DNA of 64,000 nt from an uncultured Eubacteriales bacterium (GCA_964353705.1 CAYGXD010000003.1:891-64890), one strand, 5' to 3'; numbered from the stretch's first letter, positions 24,446 to 33,531 are shown. The notes: a model not told the origin generated them from the letters alone. A program made the numbers and translations.

Positions 24446-27802
<3,357 letters not shown>

Positions 27803-27804
27803 CT

Positions 27805-28821
27805 ATGAATCAGGAGAGAGTTTGGGCGGCCGCCGTTTGCGCGATCCTGGCAGGCGTTGTCGGGATTCACTGTTCGGCGGCCCGTCCCGGCAGGGAAGCC
27901 GGAGGCGACAACGGCTTGTTGAAAAAGGAGACGGAGATGACCAGGAAGATTCAGAAGACCGACAAAGAGTGGAAGGAAACCCTGACCCCGGAGCAATACC
28001 GGGTCTTGCGCCAGGCCGGGACCGAAAGGCCGTTCTCCGGAAAATATGATGATCATCAGGAAGAGGGCAGCTACGCCTGCGGCGCCTGCGGGTCCCGGCT
28101 GTTCACTTCAGAGACGAAATATGATCACGGCTTGGGCTGGCCCAGCTTCAAGGCCCCCATCGAAAAGGACCGCTTGGAGTTCCGGGAGGATCGTTCTCAC
28201 GGCATGGTCCGGACTGAGGTCCGCTGCGCCGCCTGTGGTTCCCATCTCGGTCATGTCTTTAATGACGGCCCGGCCCCGACAGGTGAGCACTACTGCATCA
28301 ACTCGATCGCCCTGGATTTCCTCCCGGCCGAAAGGCCCGAGGAGACGAAAAAAGCGGGGACGGAATCAGCCGTCTTCGCCGCCGGATGCTTCTGGGGGGT
28401 GGAGGACAAGTTCCTCCGGGTCAAGGGTGTTCTTTCCACCCGCGTCGGCTACAGCGGCGGTCATACCAAGGACCCGACCTACCAGAAGGTCTGCTCGGAC
28501 ACCACCGGTCACGCCGAATCCGTCGAAGTCGTCTTCGACCCAGAGGCGGTCAGCTACAAGGAGCTCCTGGAGGCCTTCTTCAGGTTCCATGACCCGACAC
28601 AAGTCAACCGGCAGGGGCCTGATGAGGGGACCCAATACAGATCGGCGATTTTCTATCTGGACGAGACCCAAAAAGAAGCCGCCCTCAAGGCGATAGAAGC
28701 CCTGAACAAATCCGGCCGGTTTGAACAGCCCATAGCCACTCATGTCCTTCCCGCATCCGAGTTCTACCAGGCTGAGGATTACCACCAGAAGTACTACGAA
28801 AAACTGCGCACCAGGAAGTAG
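27805..28821 (+). CDS. msrBA: fused peptide-methionine sulfoxide reductase MsrB-MsrA, secreted/periplasmic
   Basis: GAGGAG lies 5 nt before ATG 27805, then a signal-like N-terminus. MsrB zinc and catalytic motifs CGACGSRLF...CAACGSHLGHVFNDGP, followed by MsrA AVFAAGCFWGVE...YHQKYY. Confidence 0.8.
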   Translation: MNQERVWAAAVCAILAGVVGIHCSAARPGREAGGDNGLLKKETEMTRKIQKTDKEWKETLTPEQYRVLRQAGTERPFSGKYDDHQEEGSYACGACGSRLFTSETKYDHGLGWPSFKAPIEKDRLEFREDRSHGMVRTEVRCAACGSHLGHVFNDGPAPTGEHYCINSIALDFLPAERPEETKKAGTESAVFAAGCFWGVEDKFLRVKGVLSTRVGYSGGHTKDPTYQKVCSDTTGHAESVEVVFDPEAVSYKELLEAFFRFHDPTQVNRQGPDEGTQYRSAIFYLDETQKEAALKAIEALNKSGRFEQPIATHVLPASEFYQAEDYHQKYYEKLRTRK

Positions 28822-28889
28822 CAGTCCGGCCGGCCGGAGGCCGCATCTTGTCCCCCCGGCCGATAGGGTGTAAAATTGGGGAGAGTTCC

Positions 28890-30068
28890 ATGCGCATCAT
28901 CCTATTCACCGGAAAGGGAGGCGTGGGGAAGACGACCCTCGCCGCCTCGACCGCCCTCCTCTCGGCCCGCCAGGGCTACAAGACCCTGGTCATCTCCACG
29001 GACGCCGCCCACAGCCTCTCGGACTCCTTCGAGGTTCCGCTCGGCAACACTCCTCAGAGGATCACCTCCCGCCTCTTCGGGCAGGAGGTCAACGCCCTGG
29101 AGCAGATGGAGGCCAAGTGGGGCGACATCAAGTCCTATCTCACGGCTCTTTTCTCCTCCCAGGGAGTCAATTCGATCGAGGCCGAAGAGCTGAGCGTTTT
29201 CCCGGGTATGGAGGAGCTTTTCAGCCTGATGGAGATCCGCCGTTACCACAAGACCGCCGACTATGAGGTCGTCATAGTCGACTGCGCGCCGACCGGAGAC
29301 ACCCTCCGTCTCCTCAGCGCGCCGGAGATAACCAACTGGTATCTGAAGCATATCTTCCCCGTCCAGCGGACGGCGGCCAAAGCCGTCCGGCCCGTGGCCA
29401 GCCGGCTCCTCCCCTTCCCTTTTCCCGAGGACAGGGTTTTCGAGGCGATGAAGAAGCTGACCGGTGAGCTCGCCGAGATGAAGGAGATCCTCGAGGACGG
29501 CCGGACGACTTCGATCCGCCTCGTCGTCAACCCGGAAAAGATGGTCATCAAGGAGGCCCAGCGGGCCTATACGTTCTTCAGCCTCTTCGGCTACGCCGTC
29601 GATATGATTATCGTCAACCGGCTCCTTCCGGCGGCGGTGGAAGATCCCCATTTCCTCAAATGGAAAGCCATCCAGGAAAGCTACCTGCGGCTCATCGAGG
29701 AGAGTTTTTCGCCCATCCCCATATTCGCGGCCGAGCTGGCCGACCAGGAGGTCGTCGGGCGGGCTTCCCTCGAAAAAATGGGCGACGTAGTCTATCGGGG
29801 CAAGGACCCGGCCGGGCTCTTCTTCGCGCAGAAACCCCTTCAAATCGAGAAGGAAGACGGCTGTTTCGTCCTTTCCCTGCATCTGCCCTTTGTTGAAAAG
29901 GGCGACCTTGATCTCTTCCAAAAAGGAGAAGAGCTCTTTATCAAGGTGGGTCCTTTAAAAAGGAATATCCTGCTTCCCCGGGTTATCCTGAATCACTCGA
30001 TCCGGGGGGCCAAGTTCGTCGAGGAAAGGCTGAAGATCACATTCGATCCTGACCGCAAGGAGGCGTGA
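28890..30068 (+). CDS. ArsA/GET3-family P-loop ATPase with C-terminal HSP20-like domain
   Basis: GGGGAG RBS before ATG 28890. FTGKGGVGKTTLAASTAL deviant Walker A, DTAPTGDTLRLL switch region, and a C-terminal ~90 aa beta-rich tail (FVLSLHLPFVEKGDLDLFQKGEELFIKVG). Confidence 0.75.
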   Translation: MRIILFTGKGGVGKTTLAASTALLSARQGYKTLVISTDAAHSLSDSFEVPLGNTPQRITSRLFGQEVNALEQMEAKWGDIKSYLTALFSSQGVNSIEAEELSVFPGMEELFSLMEIRRYHKTADYEVVIVDCAPTGDTLRLLSAPEITNWYLKHIFPVQRTAAKAVRPVASRLLPFPFPEDRVFEAMKKLTGELAEMKEILEDGRTTSIRLVVNPEKMVIKEAQRAYTFFSLFGYAVDMIIVNRLLPAAVEDPHFLKWKAIQESYLRLIEESFSPIPIFAAELADQEVVGRASLEKMGDVVYRGKDPAGLFFAQKPLQIEKEDGCFVLSLHLPFVEKGDLDLFQKGEELFIKVGPLKRNILLPRVILNHSIRGAKFVEERLKITFDPDRKEA

Positions 30069-30070
30069 GC

Positions 30071-30280
30071 ATGGCGGCCGATAAAACGCGGGAAATCAAG
30101 ATCTCCCTGCCGGAAGAGCTGTTCACCCTGTTCCTCCCTCTCCAGGCTCAGGAACACCTGTTCAAGGCAAGGAAGGAAGTGCTCCTGGCTATCCGCTCGG
30201 TCATCGATGCCCGGCTTGAAGCGCTCGAAAAGCGAAGCTCCGGGAAGGCCGAGACAAAGCGGAAGATCAAGGTCGAGTAG
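30071..30280 (+). CDS. small hypothetical protein (69 aa, helical, Lys/Glu-rich) translationally coupled to the ArsA-like ATPase
   Basis: AAGGAGG lies 8 nt before ATG 30071, 3 nt after the ATPase stop. No recognisable domain. Confidence 0.4.
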   Translation: MAADKTREIKISLPEELFTLFLPLQAQEHLFKARKEVLLAIRSVIDARLEALEKRSSGKAETKRKIKVE

Positions 30281-30343
30281 CAGATTCCGCTTGATTCCCG
30301 GCCGGTCTTTAGGGCATTATTATACTCTGATTTTCTTACGACA

Positions 30344-31009
30344 ATGACTGAAACCGCCGCATCAACTCGCCCCCCGAACGCCCGGCTCCTGAGAGTCATC
30401 CCCAAAAGGTGGGAGGACGGCTTTGTCAACTCCCTGGCTAGGCTGTCCGATGTCCTTGTCCGCCTCGACATCAATCCCAACCTCATCACTTTTCTGGCCT
30501 TGTTGGCCGGCCTGGCCGCCGGCGTTCTCTTCGCCTTCCATCACCCGGGCTGGGCGGTTGTCCTGATCTTTGTCTGCGGCGCCTTGGATGTCATCGACGG
30601 GAAAGTCGCGGTCAAGTCCAAGAAACAAACCCTGTACGGCGCCATCTTCGACTCGACGCTCGACCGCTACTCGGAATTTTTTATTTATTTGGGCCTGGCC
30701 TATTATTTTCGGGGCCGCTGGCCGATGTGGATCCCCTATTTCACCTTTCTGGGCTCGACCATGGTCAGCTACACGCGGGCCCGGGCCGAGGGCCTGGGCA
30801 TCGAATGCAAGGTCGGGTTCATGCAGCGGGCCGAGCGGATGATCCTTCTCGTCCTGGGCACCCTCATCGGGACGATCTTCAAAGTCTTCGACCCGGCGAT
30901 GATCGCGGTCCTGACCGCGATCGCCGTCATCTCCAATTTCACCGCCATTGAAAGAACTCTCCTCGTGAAAAAGATCGAAAAGCAAAGGAATAAAGACAAG
31001 GAGGTCTGA
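30344..31009 (+). CDS. CDP-alcohol phosphatidyltransferase (phosphatidylinositol-phosphate synthase-like)
   Basis: Signature D-G-x2-A-R-x8-G-x3-D-x3-D present as [27 protein letters not shown]. 221 aa with about 6 TM helices, size and topology like PgsA1-type PIP synthases. Confidence 0.75.
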
Positions 31010-31013
31010 ACTC

Positions 31014-32147
31014 ATGGACAAAATCAGAGTGGCCATCATCGGGGTAGGCAATTGCGCCTGTTCGCTCGTCCAGGGGATCGAATATTACAAAAACGCCAAG
31101 GAAGGGGATTTCATCCCCGGTATCATGCACGTCAACCTGGGCGGCTATCATATCCGGGACGTCGAGTTCGTGGCCGCCTTCGACATCGACAAGAACAAGG
31201 TCGGCAAGGACCTGAGCGAGGCGGCTTTCACGTCGCCCAACAACACCAAGAAATTCGCGGAAGTCCCCTTCAAGAACGTCAGGGTCAAACGGGGCATGAC
31301 CCATGACGGCCTGGGCAAGTACCTCTCCCAGATCATCCAGAAAGCGCCGGGCGCCACGGCCGACATCATCTCCATCCTCAGGGAGACAAAAACCGACGTC
31401 GTGGTGAGCTATCTCCCGGTCGGGAGCGAAGAGGCCACCAAGTGGTACGTGGAGCAGGTCCTCGAGGCCGGCTGCGCCTTCATCAACTGCATCCCGGTGT
31501 TCATCGCCAGCGAGAGATACTGGCAGAAACGGTTTGAGGACCGCGGCCTTCCGATCATCGGCGACGACATCAAATCGCAGGTCGGGGCCACCATCCTCCA
31601 CCGCACCCTGGTCAACCTCTACCTGGACCGCGGCATGCCCATCGACCGGACCTATCAGCTGAACACGGGGGGAAATACCGACTTTCTCAACATGCTGGAG
31701 CGGGAAAGGCTGCAATCCAAGAAGATCTCCAAGACGAACGCCGTGACTTCCCAGATCAGGGCCCGCGGCCAGAGCATAGACGCCGACAACATCCACGTCG
31801 GCCCGAGCGACTATGTCCCCTGGCAGAAGGACAACAAGCTCTGCTTCCTGCGCATCGAGAGCCGCCATTTCGGCGATGTCCCGACGTATCTCGACTGCCG
31901 TTTGTCGGTCGAGGACTCGCCGAACTCCGCTGGGGTCGTCATCGACGCCATCCGCTGCGCGAAGCTGGCCCTGAACAGCGGGGTTTCGGGAGCGCTCTAT
32001 GCACCCTCGTCCTACTTCATGAAATCGCCGCCGCAGCAGTACACCGACACCGAAGCCAGAGACCTGACCGGGAAATTCATTGCCCGGTACGCTAAAAAAG
32101 AAGCGAAGCGTCCGGCCCGGAAAAAGGCCGCGCCGAAAAAGAAATAG
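31014..32147 (+). CDS. ino1: myo-inositol-1-phosphate synthase (archaeal/bacterial short form)
   Basis: N-terminus [26 protein letters not shown] (NAD-binding). Further MIPS-like blocks [20 protein letters not shown] and [12 protein letters not shown]. An unusual Lys-rich C-terminal tail [14 protein letters not shown]. Confidence 0.75.
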
Positions 32148-32211
32148 CCTTTCTTTGCTCTCAGCTTTGAACTCCTTGGGCAAGTCCGGTATAATCCGCG
32201 TCCCTTTCCTC

Positions 32212-33531
32212 ATGCGAAGTACCCGCTTTCTTCTTGTGTTGTTTTCCCTGGCCGGGGTCACCCGGGCTCAAGACCCCGCCGCTTCACCCTCGACCTATCG
32301 GGCATCCGCCAGCCTGGAAGGCGGCGTGGAGTCCGCCCAAAGGCGCTATATCCGGCCGCAGCTCGGGTTCGAATTCCCTTTGCGTTTCGGCCGGATCTTT
32401 ACCGATCTGGACTACTACCACCGCACGAACGGCGACCTCGAAGGAGAGATCGATTTTTGGGTGGACGTCGGGCTCAGAAGCCCGCTTTCTCCCCATTCCG
32501 AAATGGAAGTGCTCCTCCAGCACTTCTGCCGTCACAAGACATCCCTTGACTATCCCGTAGTCCTGGATATCAACGAGCTCTTGGCCCGCTACTGGTATCT
32601 GGCTGGAAGCCTCAAGCTCGGGTTCGGCGGCGGCACCTACCTCGGAACAAGCAATCATTATGATAATCTGCTTGTCCTGAACGTGGCCTGGTCCCGGATC
32701 TTCCGCTCTGAGCTTTCCGTCACGGCGGAAGTCAAGTGGGTCGATTTCCAGGAGCTTCTCTATGACTTCGAGCTCGCCATCGGGCTGGACTCGAGCGTCG
32801 ACCTCGTCGCCCGCCTCACCCGGCATTATGTCTATCCGCCGACCACCTATTTCGGCCTGCGCTTCAATTCTCATGACGCGGCGGAGGAGTGGATTGATCA
32901 ATTCCGGTTTCGGGGCGGGCTCCTTCCCGACGATGAGACCCGGAAAGTCTTTGCGGCGCTCGAGTTCAGCCTGCATTTTTTTGAGAAACCCCTCAGTCAG
33001 CTTCTTCTGACCCTGACCGGGGACATTCCGATTGAAAGGGGGAAGGCGTTCCTGGCCACCTTCCATCCGGAGGAGATCAAGTACCGGGCCGATGCCGTCT
33101 ACGAAAGGCGGCTCCGCCCGGACGTGTACGTATTTGGATACGGCCGCTATGATCTGCACATGCCGGTTGACGTGGCCCAACGGTTCGACTCGAGCTTCGG
33201 CCTCGGGCTGGGGCTTAAGAATCAGACGTACTTCAAGAAATTGGAGCGGAGCTTCAGGTATATCGTTTTCGCGGGCCGGAACTACAGCCACAGCTATGAT
33301 ATCGGAATGGCCGTCGGTCTCAATACGACCGGGAAGCCGGTCAATATCGGAGGGGACCTCCAGATGGACTTCAAGTCCGGCGAATTCCACGTGCTTTACG
33401 AGATCTTCGTTGAAGCCGGGAGAACGCCCAAGGTCAGGCCGTTTTTGGCATTCGAGCAGATAGCCGCGGAGACCAGAAACAAATCATTCCCCCGGTTCCT
33501 GTTCGGCGTCGAGCTCTATGCCTGGCATTGA
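32212..33531 (+). CDS. secreted hypothetical protein, possible outer-membrane beta-barrel
   Basis: Signal peptide MRSTRFLLVLFSLAGVTRAQ. Alternating hydrophobic/aromatic beta-strand-like periodicity, C-terminal ...FGVELYAWH. TATAAT lies ~17 nt upstream of the ATG with no SD. Confidence 0.4.
   Translation: MRSTRFLLVLFSLAGVTRAQDPAASPSTYRASASLEGGVESAQRRYIRPQLGFEFPLRFGRIFTDLDYYHRTNGDLEGEIDFWVDVGLRSPLSPHSEMEVLLQHFCRHKTSLDYPVVLDINELLARYWYLAGSLKLGFGGGTYLGTSNHYDNLLVLNVAWSRIFRSELSVTAEVKWVDFQELLYDFELAIGLDSSVDLVARLTRHYVYPPTTYFGLRFNSHDAAEEWIDQFRFRGGLLPDDETRKVFAALEFSLHFFEKPLSQLLLTLTGDIPIERGKAFLATFHPEEIKYRADAVYERRLRPDVYVFGYGRYDLHMPVDVAQRFDSSFGLGLGLKNQTYFKKLERSFRYIVFAGRNYSHSYDIGMAVGLNTTGKPVNIGGDLQMDFKSGEFHVLYEIFVEAGRTPKVRPFLAFEQIAAETRNKSFPRFLFGVELYAWH

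Follow-up and report, generated by a model that had tools for sequence, protein, structure and literature searches.

A Get3/ArsA-fold ATPase with an alpha-crystallin domain and its AF_1253-family neighbor form a two-gene cassette in Candidatus Aminicenantes and distant lineages

A gene for a Get3/ArsA-fold ATPase with a C-terminal alpha-crystallin domain and a directly following gene for a small helical protein of the AF_1253 family constitute a two-gene cassette that is kept across phyla and across the bacterial-archaeal divide, and that apparently has not been described so far. The cassette was found in a 64,000-nucleotide stretch of a Candidatus Aminicenantes genome (the window), where it opens a row of five co-directional genes on the + strand (28890-33531), all of which were confirmed as ORFs. 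In the preliminary description, the five were taken together as one membrane-biogenesis or lipid-remodelling unit. That reading does not hold; the row probably consists of three separate units that happen to adjoin, i.e., the ATPase with its small partner, an inositol-lipid gene pair, and an unrelated secreted barrel protein. The lead to follow is the ATPase-AF_1253 cassette.

The ATPase gene (28890..30068, + strand) is preceded by a promoter-like site, TTGTCC-17-TAAAAT (28848..28876, + strand), which is a consensus match only (9/12 in a consensus scan), and its neighbors in the window include msrBA, the two inositol-lipid genes, and glmS. Its product of 392 aa comprises an ATPase domain (aa 1-302) and an alpha-crystallin, or HSP20-like, domain (aa 324-385). 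Pfam found all four families expected at the locus (ArsA_ATPase, ArsA_HSP20, CDP-OH_P_transf, and Inos-1-P_synth), and thereby confirmed both ATPase domains, with 299.5 bits for PF02374 (ArsA_ATPase; cut-off 24.3, 3.5e-89) and 73.1 bits for PF17886 (ArsA_HSP20; cut-off 22.5, 1.4e-20, residues 324-385). The protein also lies above the NCBIfam cut-off for the TRC40/GET3/ArsA family (TIGR00345, 249.9 vs 135 bits). Its sequence contains the P-loop (deviant Walker A) GKGGVGKT, the switch I motif DAAHS (in DAAHSLSD), and the switch II motif DCAPTG, but no CXXC, the only two cysteines being those in DCAPTG and EDGCF.

The same architecture, one Get3/ArsA domain followed by an alpha-crystallin domain, is known from Get3d of Arabidopsis and Nostoc (PMC10248533) and from the ‘group 6’ bacterial and ‘group 11’ archaeal homologs (PMC6593721). 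Like the present ATPase, Get3d-like homologs are devoid of the CXXC zinc motif, and the green-sulfur and Chloroflexi members have an intact P-loop lysine and switch motifs. However, in sequence the protein matches archaeal Get3 better (3zq6, 177 bits) than either NosGet3d, with 84 bits, or AtGet3d, with 60; it also falls below the NosAFP equivalog cut-off of NCBIfam (165 vs 325 bits) and comes from a non-phototroph. Judged by these scores, it belongs to a subfamily other than that of the cyanobacterial and plant Get3d proteins. Its best-scoring solved relatives, the archaeal Get3 proteins of M. thermautotrophicus (3zq6, the closest) and M. jannaschii (3ug6, 146 bits), are single-domain chains of 324-349 aa that, unlike this ATPase, have no alpha-crystallin domain. 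We know of no small partner of these archaeal proteins.

The arsenical pump-driving ATPase ArsA has two homologous halves and about 580 aa. It is of the same fold family as the present ATPase and, with ArsD, offers a model of a small protein dedicated to such an ATPase, whereas the protein described here is a single half of 392 aa with no pseudo-dimer, no cysteine triad, and no ars genes nearby. An identity as arsenic-pump ArsA was rejected on its single domain and on its scores against TIGR04291 (90 vs 650 bits) and NF041417 (124.7 vs 800 bits). In line with its treatment in the preliminary description as a homolog from outside arsenic operons, no ars-operon family (arsR, arsB, ACR3, arsC, or arsD) occurs next to it, nor beside related ATPases in the loci whose gene tables carry Pfam annotation.

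The small gene (30071..30280, + strand) encodes a soluble protein of 69 aa. Its AAGGAGG ribosome-binding site had been placed 3 nt after the ATPase stop; the tight coupling of the two genes stands, but the site actually lies within the last ATPase codons (30057..30063, + strand), and it is the ATG, at 30071, that follows the stop (30066-30068), with a distance of 2 nt. Assignment to AF_1253 (PF27253) is a precomputed annotation carried by an identical protein (P0001) and by all 86 close homologs; the local Pfam copy, which does not include this model, returned 0 matches. A profile search with the family gave 447 cluster representatives. The protein has no hydrophobic segment, its maximum Kyte-Doolittle value over 19-residue windows being 0.67, and the AlphaFold model agrees with its earlier description as helical: one long helix (residues 24-61) between extended termini. 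The helix displays a conserved face of His29, Ala33, Glu36, Ala40, and Ser43, and the termini are nearly invariant, with EIKI at the start and KIKVE (a K-I-x-V/I-E tail) at the end.

Within Aminicenantes, AF_1253 lies directly 3' of an ArsA/Get3 ATPase gene with alpha-crystallin domain in 40 of 40 loci. The same order was found in all seven distant lineages that were looked up, one of them archaeal, where the upstream gene encodes both ArsA_ATPase and ArsA_HSP20. These distant AF_1253 members (33-50% identity) sit in wholly different neighborhoods (L069-L075, L156, L158, and L159), such as an archaeal contig that carries Ribosomal_S3Ae and LSM (L158). A further sample consisted of 80 metagenomic loci without taxonomic label, seeded with AF_1253 proteins of a kind that, where named, is Chloroflexota/Dehalococcoidia; here the ATPase is directly upstream in 30 of 50 loci. 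The remaining 20, apparently from one lineage, have AF_1253 with no upstream ATPase, so the adjacency is not obligatory. Conversely, the Bacteroidota and Chlorobi members examined have the alpha-crystallin-bearing ATPase but no AF_1253 gene, and in a rough neighbor-joining tree they fall apart from the partner-bearing ATPases. The passages on operons and neighbors in two studies of alpha-crystallin-bearing homologs discuss no neighboring gene (PMC10248533, PMC6593721).

What such a cassette may do can be proposed by analogy with its relatives. Get3d binds tail-anchored proteins (PMC10248533), shielding of hydrophobic client segments has been shown in vitro for Get3d and archaeal Get3, and only AtGet3d and archaeal Get3 are known to take up tail-anchored or other hydrophobic clients in a groove (PMC10248533, PMC6593721). 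By the same token, the ATPase would act in chaperoning or targeting, under the control of ATP, and would cover the hydrophobic segments of its clients, be they tail-anchored or other membrane proteins. ATPases of this type are spread among non-phototrophic bacteria and archaea, and the number of tail-anchored proteins in bacteria is uncorrelated with the presence of such homologs (PMC6593721), so that tail-anchored proteins are only candidate clients of the bacterial ATPase. AF_1253, encoded 2 nt downstream, could then be the dedicated regulatory subunit of the ATPase and dock onto its alpha-crystallin domain, which in Get3d occupies the Get4-binding site (PMC10248533). Contact would be made through the conserved helix face and the extended, near-invariant termini.

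A precedent for such docking may exist in the small heat-shock proteins, whose C-terminal I-x-I/V motif docks in the beta4/beta8 groove of the alpha-crystallin domain. The K-I-x-V/I-E tail of AF_1253 and the alpha-crystallin domain of its cognate ATPase would be an analogous arrangement, albeit with the motif and the domain on two different proteins. We tentatively suggest, as a possibility that still has the odds against it, that AF_1253 is the missing dedicated partner of the prokaryotic alpha-crystallin Get3 proteins in bacteria and archaea, with its tail docking as I-x-I does and its helix face lying on the ATPase dimer. If true, AF_1253 would regulate, much as Get4 or Get1 does, a prokaryotic GET-type chaperone cycle that has hitherto gone undescribed.

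The pair could instead be a stress holdase, i.e., a small-heat-shock-like system for damaged proteins that is largely independent of membrane insertion. This we consider unlikely. The alpha-crystallin domain itself speaks for it, as do a canonical HSP20 gene just upstream of the pair in one distant locus (L075) and a gene for methionine-sulfoxide reductase B/A that immediately precedes the pair in the window and in close relatives; however, these adjoining stress genes are not kept across lineages. Holdase switching of yeast Get3, moreover, relies on CXXC cysteines, and these are absent from the present ATPase. [quoted passage not shown]

The third and fourth genes are a recognizable, ordinary inositol-lipid gene pair, as had been proposed, and the domain matches of both products bear this out. 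The third (30344..31009, + strand) encodes a CDP-alcohol phosphatidyltransferase of the inositol-phosphate (PIP/AIP synthase) type, 221 aa in length, with 57 bits for PF01066 (CDP-OH_P_transf; 3.4e-15). Its top PDB matches are the solved PIP synthases 6h53, 5d91, and 6wm5, with the mycobacterial and Renibacterium enzymes scoring best (64-65 bits). Its top NCBIfam matches are AIP synthase (150 bits, cut-off 180), the BT_1523 PIPS (137, cut-off 350), and PIPSynth (107, cut-off 170), and it stays below every NCBIfam equivalog cut-off for PIPS or AIPS. The signature D-x2-D-G-x2-A-R-x8-G-x3-D-x3-D (aa 82-107) is present in its four Asp, its Gly residues, and its spacing, but the Arg is replaced, here by Val, as it is replaced in 39 of 39 Aminicenantes orthologs. 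In both respects the enzyme departs from PgsA1 and BT_1523, and because of the missed cut-offs and the lost Arg its substrate is not certain.

The fourth gene (31014..32147, + strand) starts 4 nt past the transferase stop and encodes a myo-inositol-3-phosphate synthase (MIPS) of 377 aa (PF01658, Inos-1-P_synth, 112 bits, cut-off 27, 2e-32), which closely resembles Ino1 of M. tuberculosis (1GR0), with 445 bits for residues 3-356. With 493.7 bits against TIGR03450, it falls under the mycothiol-type equivalog cut-off of 638. In relatives the two genes are likewise 1-6 nt apart or overlap. A PIPS-type transferase and a MIPS also occur together as PgsA1/Ino1 in mycobacteria and as BT_1523/BT_1526 in Bacteroides (PMC9246714); here they are tightly coupled, and in contrast to the Bacteroides cluster with BT_1525 (PMC9246714) there is no PgpA-like PIP phosphatase gene among them. 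MIPS would convert glucose-6-phosphate to inositol-3-phosphate, which the transferase may join with CDP-diacylglycerol to give phosphatidylinositol phosphate, and a phosphatase encoded elsewhere would release phosphatidylinositol.

That the ATPase, the small protein, the two lipid enzymes, and the barrel form one unit, in which the ATPase might insert or chaperone the lipid enzymes or the barrel, is quite improbable, even though the gene order has something to offer in its favor. The order ATPase-small gene-PIPS-MIPS recurs in most Aminicenantes genomes, with PIPS in 33 of 36 loci and MIPS in 24 of 36, and the ATPase-PIPS adjacency is kept at ATPase identities of ~67-90% with only a ~64-nt spacer. 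The consensus scan found no terminator-like site on the + strand of the spacer, and envelope genes (glmS, glmU-like, lpxC) are abundant nearby. However, PIPS and MIPS were found beside the pair in 0 of 32 metagenomic loci and 0 of the seven distant lineages. Wherever the gene order is broken in Aminicenantes, the break is at the junction of the small gene with PIPS: L036 and L040, two loci with ATPase identities of 56-57%, are interrupted there by 2 kb of unrelated genes, and two others (L025 and L038) have the pair with neither lipid gene. In eight loci, MIPS is absent after PIPS. The convergent glmS-glmU-TPR-lpxC block is as well conserved as the ATPase-small gene-PIPS order, so lineage synteny is the best account of the adjacency, whose conservation is generic and no evidence of function. 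In addition, the transferase, with its hydrophobic segments, is multi-pass and not tail-anchored, and none of the 63 genome loci retrieved along with the ATPase has a barrel homolog, which holds for the closest relatives (L001 and L002) as well.

The pair and PIPS may nonetheless be co-transcribed in Aminicenantes. The ~63-64-nt spacer before the transferase gene contains a -35-like block, CTTGATT (30290..30296, + strand), which is kept in 20 aligned orthologous spacers with diverged flanks, and an AT-rich -10-like CATTAT (30315-30320, + strand) 18 nt 3' of it. The block does not reach the consensus scanner's threshold; from its conservation we infer a candidate promoter of the transferase gene.

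ATPases of the SIMIBI class also act in metal and cofactor delivery (ArsA/ArsD, CooC, UreG, and HypB). Such a role for the pair, with the small protein as metallochaperone or adaptor, is very improbable: although the invariant His29, Glu36, and Asp46 share one side of the AF_1253 helix and ArsA has its small partner ArsD, Cys-rich and His-rich motifs are missing from both proteins, the two ATPase cysteines form no site, no metalloenzyme or transporter gene consistently adjoins the pair, and the ATPase falls far short of the arsenical ArsA model (90 bits, cut-off 650).

The fifth gene (32212..33531, + strand) lies outside the conserved units. Its product is a secreted beta-barrel protein of the outer membrane that belongs to no described family. 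Counted from the ATG 17 nt past the promoter-like site TTGAAC-17-TATAAT (32167..32195, + strand; 10/12 in the consensus scan), it has 439 aa. The signal peptide and barrel-like periodicity first noticed in it are matched by a signal peptide and a closed antiparallel barrel in the model, whose 24 strands probably make up two 12-stranded barrels. The gene would be transcribed separately and is lineage-restricted. Its homologs number only 38, and in distant genomes they lie elsewhere: those with 42-50% identity are located in a different context, flanked by genes for a tRNA methyltransferase and an ABC transporter.

In the preliminary description, five co-directional genes were suggested to form one membrane-biogenesis or lipid-remodelling unit. 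The five open reading frames were confirmed from the sequence at 28890-30068, 30071-30280, 30344-31009, 31014-32147 and 32212-33531 of the + strand, and the genes had been identified correctly. The first protein contains Pfam ArsA_ATPase (3.5e-89) and ArsA_HSP20 (1.4e-20), the latter an alpha-crystallin domain; the third contains CDP-OH_P_transf (3.4e-15); and the fourth contains Inos-1-P_synth (2e-32), with inositol-3-phosphate synthase as its nearest NCBIfam model (MIPS). The second protein (69 aa) and the fifth (the barrel protein) had no match in the Pfam library release searched. The proposal of a single unit did not hold, as the first two genes occur without the inositol genes outside the Aminicenantes, the barrel is not conserved, and the gene order breaks at the junction of the small and transferase genes. 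In the five-gene arrangement, three units are juxtaposed in a lineage-specific way. Both the ATPase type and the inositol module are of known kinds, and the new, testable element is the cross-domain cassette of the ATPase and its small partner, AF_1253. A tempting false lead, that GET-like targeting is tied to inositol-lipid synthesis in bacteria, is thereby removed.

The order was followed in 63 genome loci fetched with the ATPase as a query, onto which the window proteins were mapped. Copies 90% identical to the ATPase gene were found in genomes labelled Candidatus Aminicenantes, and database entries identical to the small protein and the barrel come from a 70.7-kb contig. The small gene directly follows an ATPase with an alpha-crystallin domain in all 40 Aminicenantes loci having enough upstream sequence, and the transferase and MIPS are also present in 33 and 24 of 36 loci, respectively. 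Because the convergent glmS-glmU-TPR-lpxC block is likewise retained in Aminicenantes loci, conservation at this level reflects general synteny. All order breaks are located at the small gene/transferase junction: two loci (L036 and L040) carry 2 kb with two unrelated open reading frames at this point, and in two others (L025 and L038) the ATPase-small gene pair is followed by other genes. MIPS is absent after the transferase in eight loci. The inserted frames (L036 2750-4747, also in L040; 306 and 355 aa) appear by eye to be phosphotransacylase-like and butyrate/acetate kinase-like. The gene directly upstream of the ATPase gene, in the window (27793-28821) and in close relatives, encodes an MsrB/MsrA fusion, a methionine-sulfoxide reductase whose N-terminal leader is hydrophobic.

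The small protein belongs to PF27253 (AF_1253), a family newer than the Pfam release used for the domain search; a precomputed match to it is present in 86 of 86 close homologs, and the gene tables use the same name. When 1.84 billion representatives were searched with a profile, 447 AF_1253 clusters were obtained, mostly of 60-115 aa, with a conserved strand-like segment at the N-terminus, a core of the form (L/I)P-x-E-x3-H-x3-A-x-KE-x-LLA-x-RS-x-ID, and a C-terminal K-I-x-V/I-E. Distant members on long contigs (33-50% identity; seven lineages, L069/L070, L071/L072, L073/L074, L075, L156, L158 and L159) have an ArsA_ATPase+ArsA_HSP20 gene immediately upstream. Their neighbourhoods are wholly different from one another, and none of the seven contexts contains a CDP-OH_P_transf or Inos-1-P_synth gene. 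One of them, L158, was judged archaeal from its Ribosomal_S3Ae, LSM and DUF749 genes. In another, the unlabelled metagenomic contig L075, a canonical HSP20 small heat-shock gene (1111-1587) lies just upstream of the pair.

As the broad AF_1253 alignment had no stretch conserved enough for a metagenome scan, a narrower alignment was used, made of proteins of the kind whose source, if named, is Chloroflexota or Dehalococcoidia. The scan yielded 80 unlabelled loci. An ATPase with the alpha-crystallin domain is directly upstream of AF_1253 in 30 of the 50 with at least 1.3 kb of upstream sequence, and inositol genes are found in none of the 32 with at least 2.5 kb downstream. Since AF_1253 pairs with the ATPase across lineages without the inositol genes, the selected unit is therefore a two-gene cassette and not a set of five genes. 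In the other 20 of the 50 loci, AF_1253 has no ATPase upstream. Judged from the four that were read (L104, L110, L126 and L131), all with the same convergent gene downstream, these exceptions look like one lineage with a solitary AF_1253 or a split pair. Upstream of the solitary gene, three of the four have a large multi-pass membrane protein, amino-acid-permease-like by its look, and L131 has unrelated genes. The AF_1253 gene is missing from twelve Bacteroidota and Chlorobi loci whose ATPase has the alpha-crystallin domain; in a rough neighbour-joining tree, the partner-bearing ATPases cluster together, apart from those twelve. From the loci, 78 ATPase-AF_1253 pairs were collected, reduced to 34 at 80% identity. 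One database protein (P0052, 120 aa) matches AF_1253 and, at its N-terminus, the ArsA/CbiA P-loop, which suggests that some contigs have either a second ATPase gene starting immediately behind the small gene or a gene call that is fused or frameshifted.

In NCBIfam, the ATPase passes the TRC40/GET3/ArsA cut-off and falls far short of the arsenical ArsA models. Among solved structures, it is closest to archaeal Get3 (3zq6, 177 bits), Chlamydomonas ArsA1 and Methanocaldococcus jannaschii Get3, whereas NosGet3d and AtGet3d match less well (84 and 60 bits). The P-loop lysine, switch I and switch II are present, and the only two cysteines do not form a CXXC motif. A defence role was dropped, as the PADLOC models matched the ATPase only weakly, at the P-loop (E 4.5e-5 to 5e-3, 14-20 bits), and did not match the small protein or the barrel. 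A role in arsenic resistance was ruled out by domain architecture, scores and context. The architecture itself has already been catalogued: PMC6593721 describes a group of 301 bacterial sequences with the TRC40-insert and the alpha-crystallin domain, some of them from Acidobacteria, Chloroflexi and Bacteroidetes, as well as an archaeal group (n=21). The paper states that the function of these groups is unknown and that numbers of tail-anchored proteins are uncorrelated with the presence of these homologs. For Get3d, PMC10248533 shows in vitro binding of tail-anchored proteins and an alpha-crystallin domain packed against the ATPase dimer where Get4 would bind. The 'operon' and 'neighbor' passages of these two papers contain no discussion of a gene neighbouring the alpha-crystallin-bearing homologs. 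Our literature search gave no mention of the ATPase-AF_1253 pair; full-text searches for AF_1253 returned nothing and those for 'AF1253' only unrelated papers. The partner gene, kept beside the ATPase in contigs of Aminicenantes, of the Chloroflexota type, of other bacteria and of archaea, offers a concrete, clonable handle, with which co-expression, the structure of the complex and regulation of the ATPase are open to direct test.

Modelled alone, AF_1253 forms a short helix and a long helix (residues 24-61) with extended, lower-confidence termini, and a PDB sequence search gave no meaningful match. The 69-aa protein has no hydrophobic segment, and the idea that it is itself a tail-anchored client was rejected for that reason. 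The invariant residues His29, Ala33, Glu36, Ala40 and Ser43 share one helical face, a pattern typical of a packing interface. Small heat-shock proteins insert an I-x-I/V anchoring motif into alpha-crystallin domains, and the terminal I-x-V of AF_1253 resembles this motif. On the basis of this likeness and the invariant helical face, we propose that AF_1253 may be a regulatory subunit of a Get3-type chaperone and would dock on the alpha-crystallin domain and the ATPase dimer.

The spacing of the genes was also compared. The AAGGAGG site described for the small gene is present, but it lies inside the end of the ATPase frame, and the ATG is 2 nt past the stop codon. Another AAGGAGG accompanies the transferase and MIPS genes, which lie 4 nt apart. 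In most Aminicenantes, some 60-65 nt separate the small gene from the transferase gene. This spacer has a CTTGA(T/A)T block (CTTGATT at 30290-30296, + strand) that is kept across divergent Aminicenantes spacers (L002-L064) while its flanks diverge; in the window, an AT-rich hexamer follows 18 nt downstream. A separate promoter, with this block as its probable -35 element, is an inference, because the CTTGATT site is below the threshold of the consensus scanner. The same scan gave sigma-70-like sites for the barrel gene (10/12 matches, 17 nt before the ATG) and the ATPase gene (9/12). A riboswitch reading was dropped, as the region gave only two Rfam matches, both below the gathering score (E 0.13 and 0.46) and not credible.

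The barrel protein has only 38 homologs, none with a Pfam domain, and none in the 63 genome loci. Homologs of 66% identity follow MIPS (L064-L066), and at 42-50% identity the neighbours are a tRNA methyltransferase on one side and an ABC transporter on the other. A PDB sequence search gave no meaningful match, the only PDB folds that Foldseek matched were generic large barrels (TM about 0.3), and BLASTP of its two halves revealed no internal repeat. In the closest relatives (L001 and L002), glmS directly follows MIPS. Many other Aminicenantes have in this slot a signal-peptide protein of ~940 aa (L010 9101-11935; L013 7142-9964) and not the 439-aa barrel.

The claim of an inositol-lipid gene pair was upheld, as the transferase and MIPS match the two-step route to PIP that mycobacteria and Bacteroides are established to use (PMC9246714), but no PgpA-like phosphatase is adjacent. 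The transferase aligns best with PIP synthases of mycobacteria and Renibacterium, an alignment that takes in the SYxKARAEG and ERxER region, and its nearest NCBIfam models are archaetidylinositol-phosphate and PIP synthases, with all equivalog cut-offs missed. The CDP-alcohol signature (aa 82-107; window 30587-30664, + strand) retains all four Asp residues and their spacing, with Val in place of the Arg of DGxxAR. This Arg is absent from 39 of 39 Aminicenantes orthologs, which have V, A, E, I, L, S, G or K instead, and Lys follows the DG. The enzyme is predicted to be of the PIP-synthase type with an atypical signature; its substrate assignment is tentative, because the equivalog cut-offs are missed and the signature Arg is replaced. 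The Aminicenantes are hereby recorded as encoding a PIPS-MIPS pair whose catalytic signature is atypical. MIPS aligns to M. tuberculosis Ino1 with 445 bits, and beyond the aligned part it ends in a Lys/Arg/Pro-rich tail (aa ~357-377, window 32080-32147).
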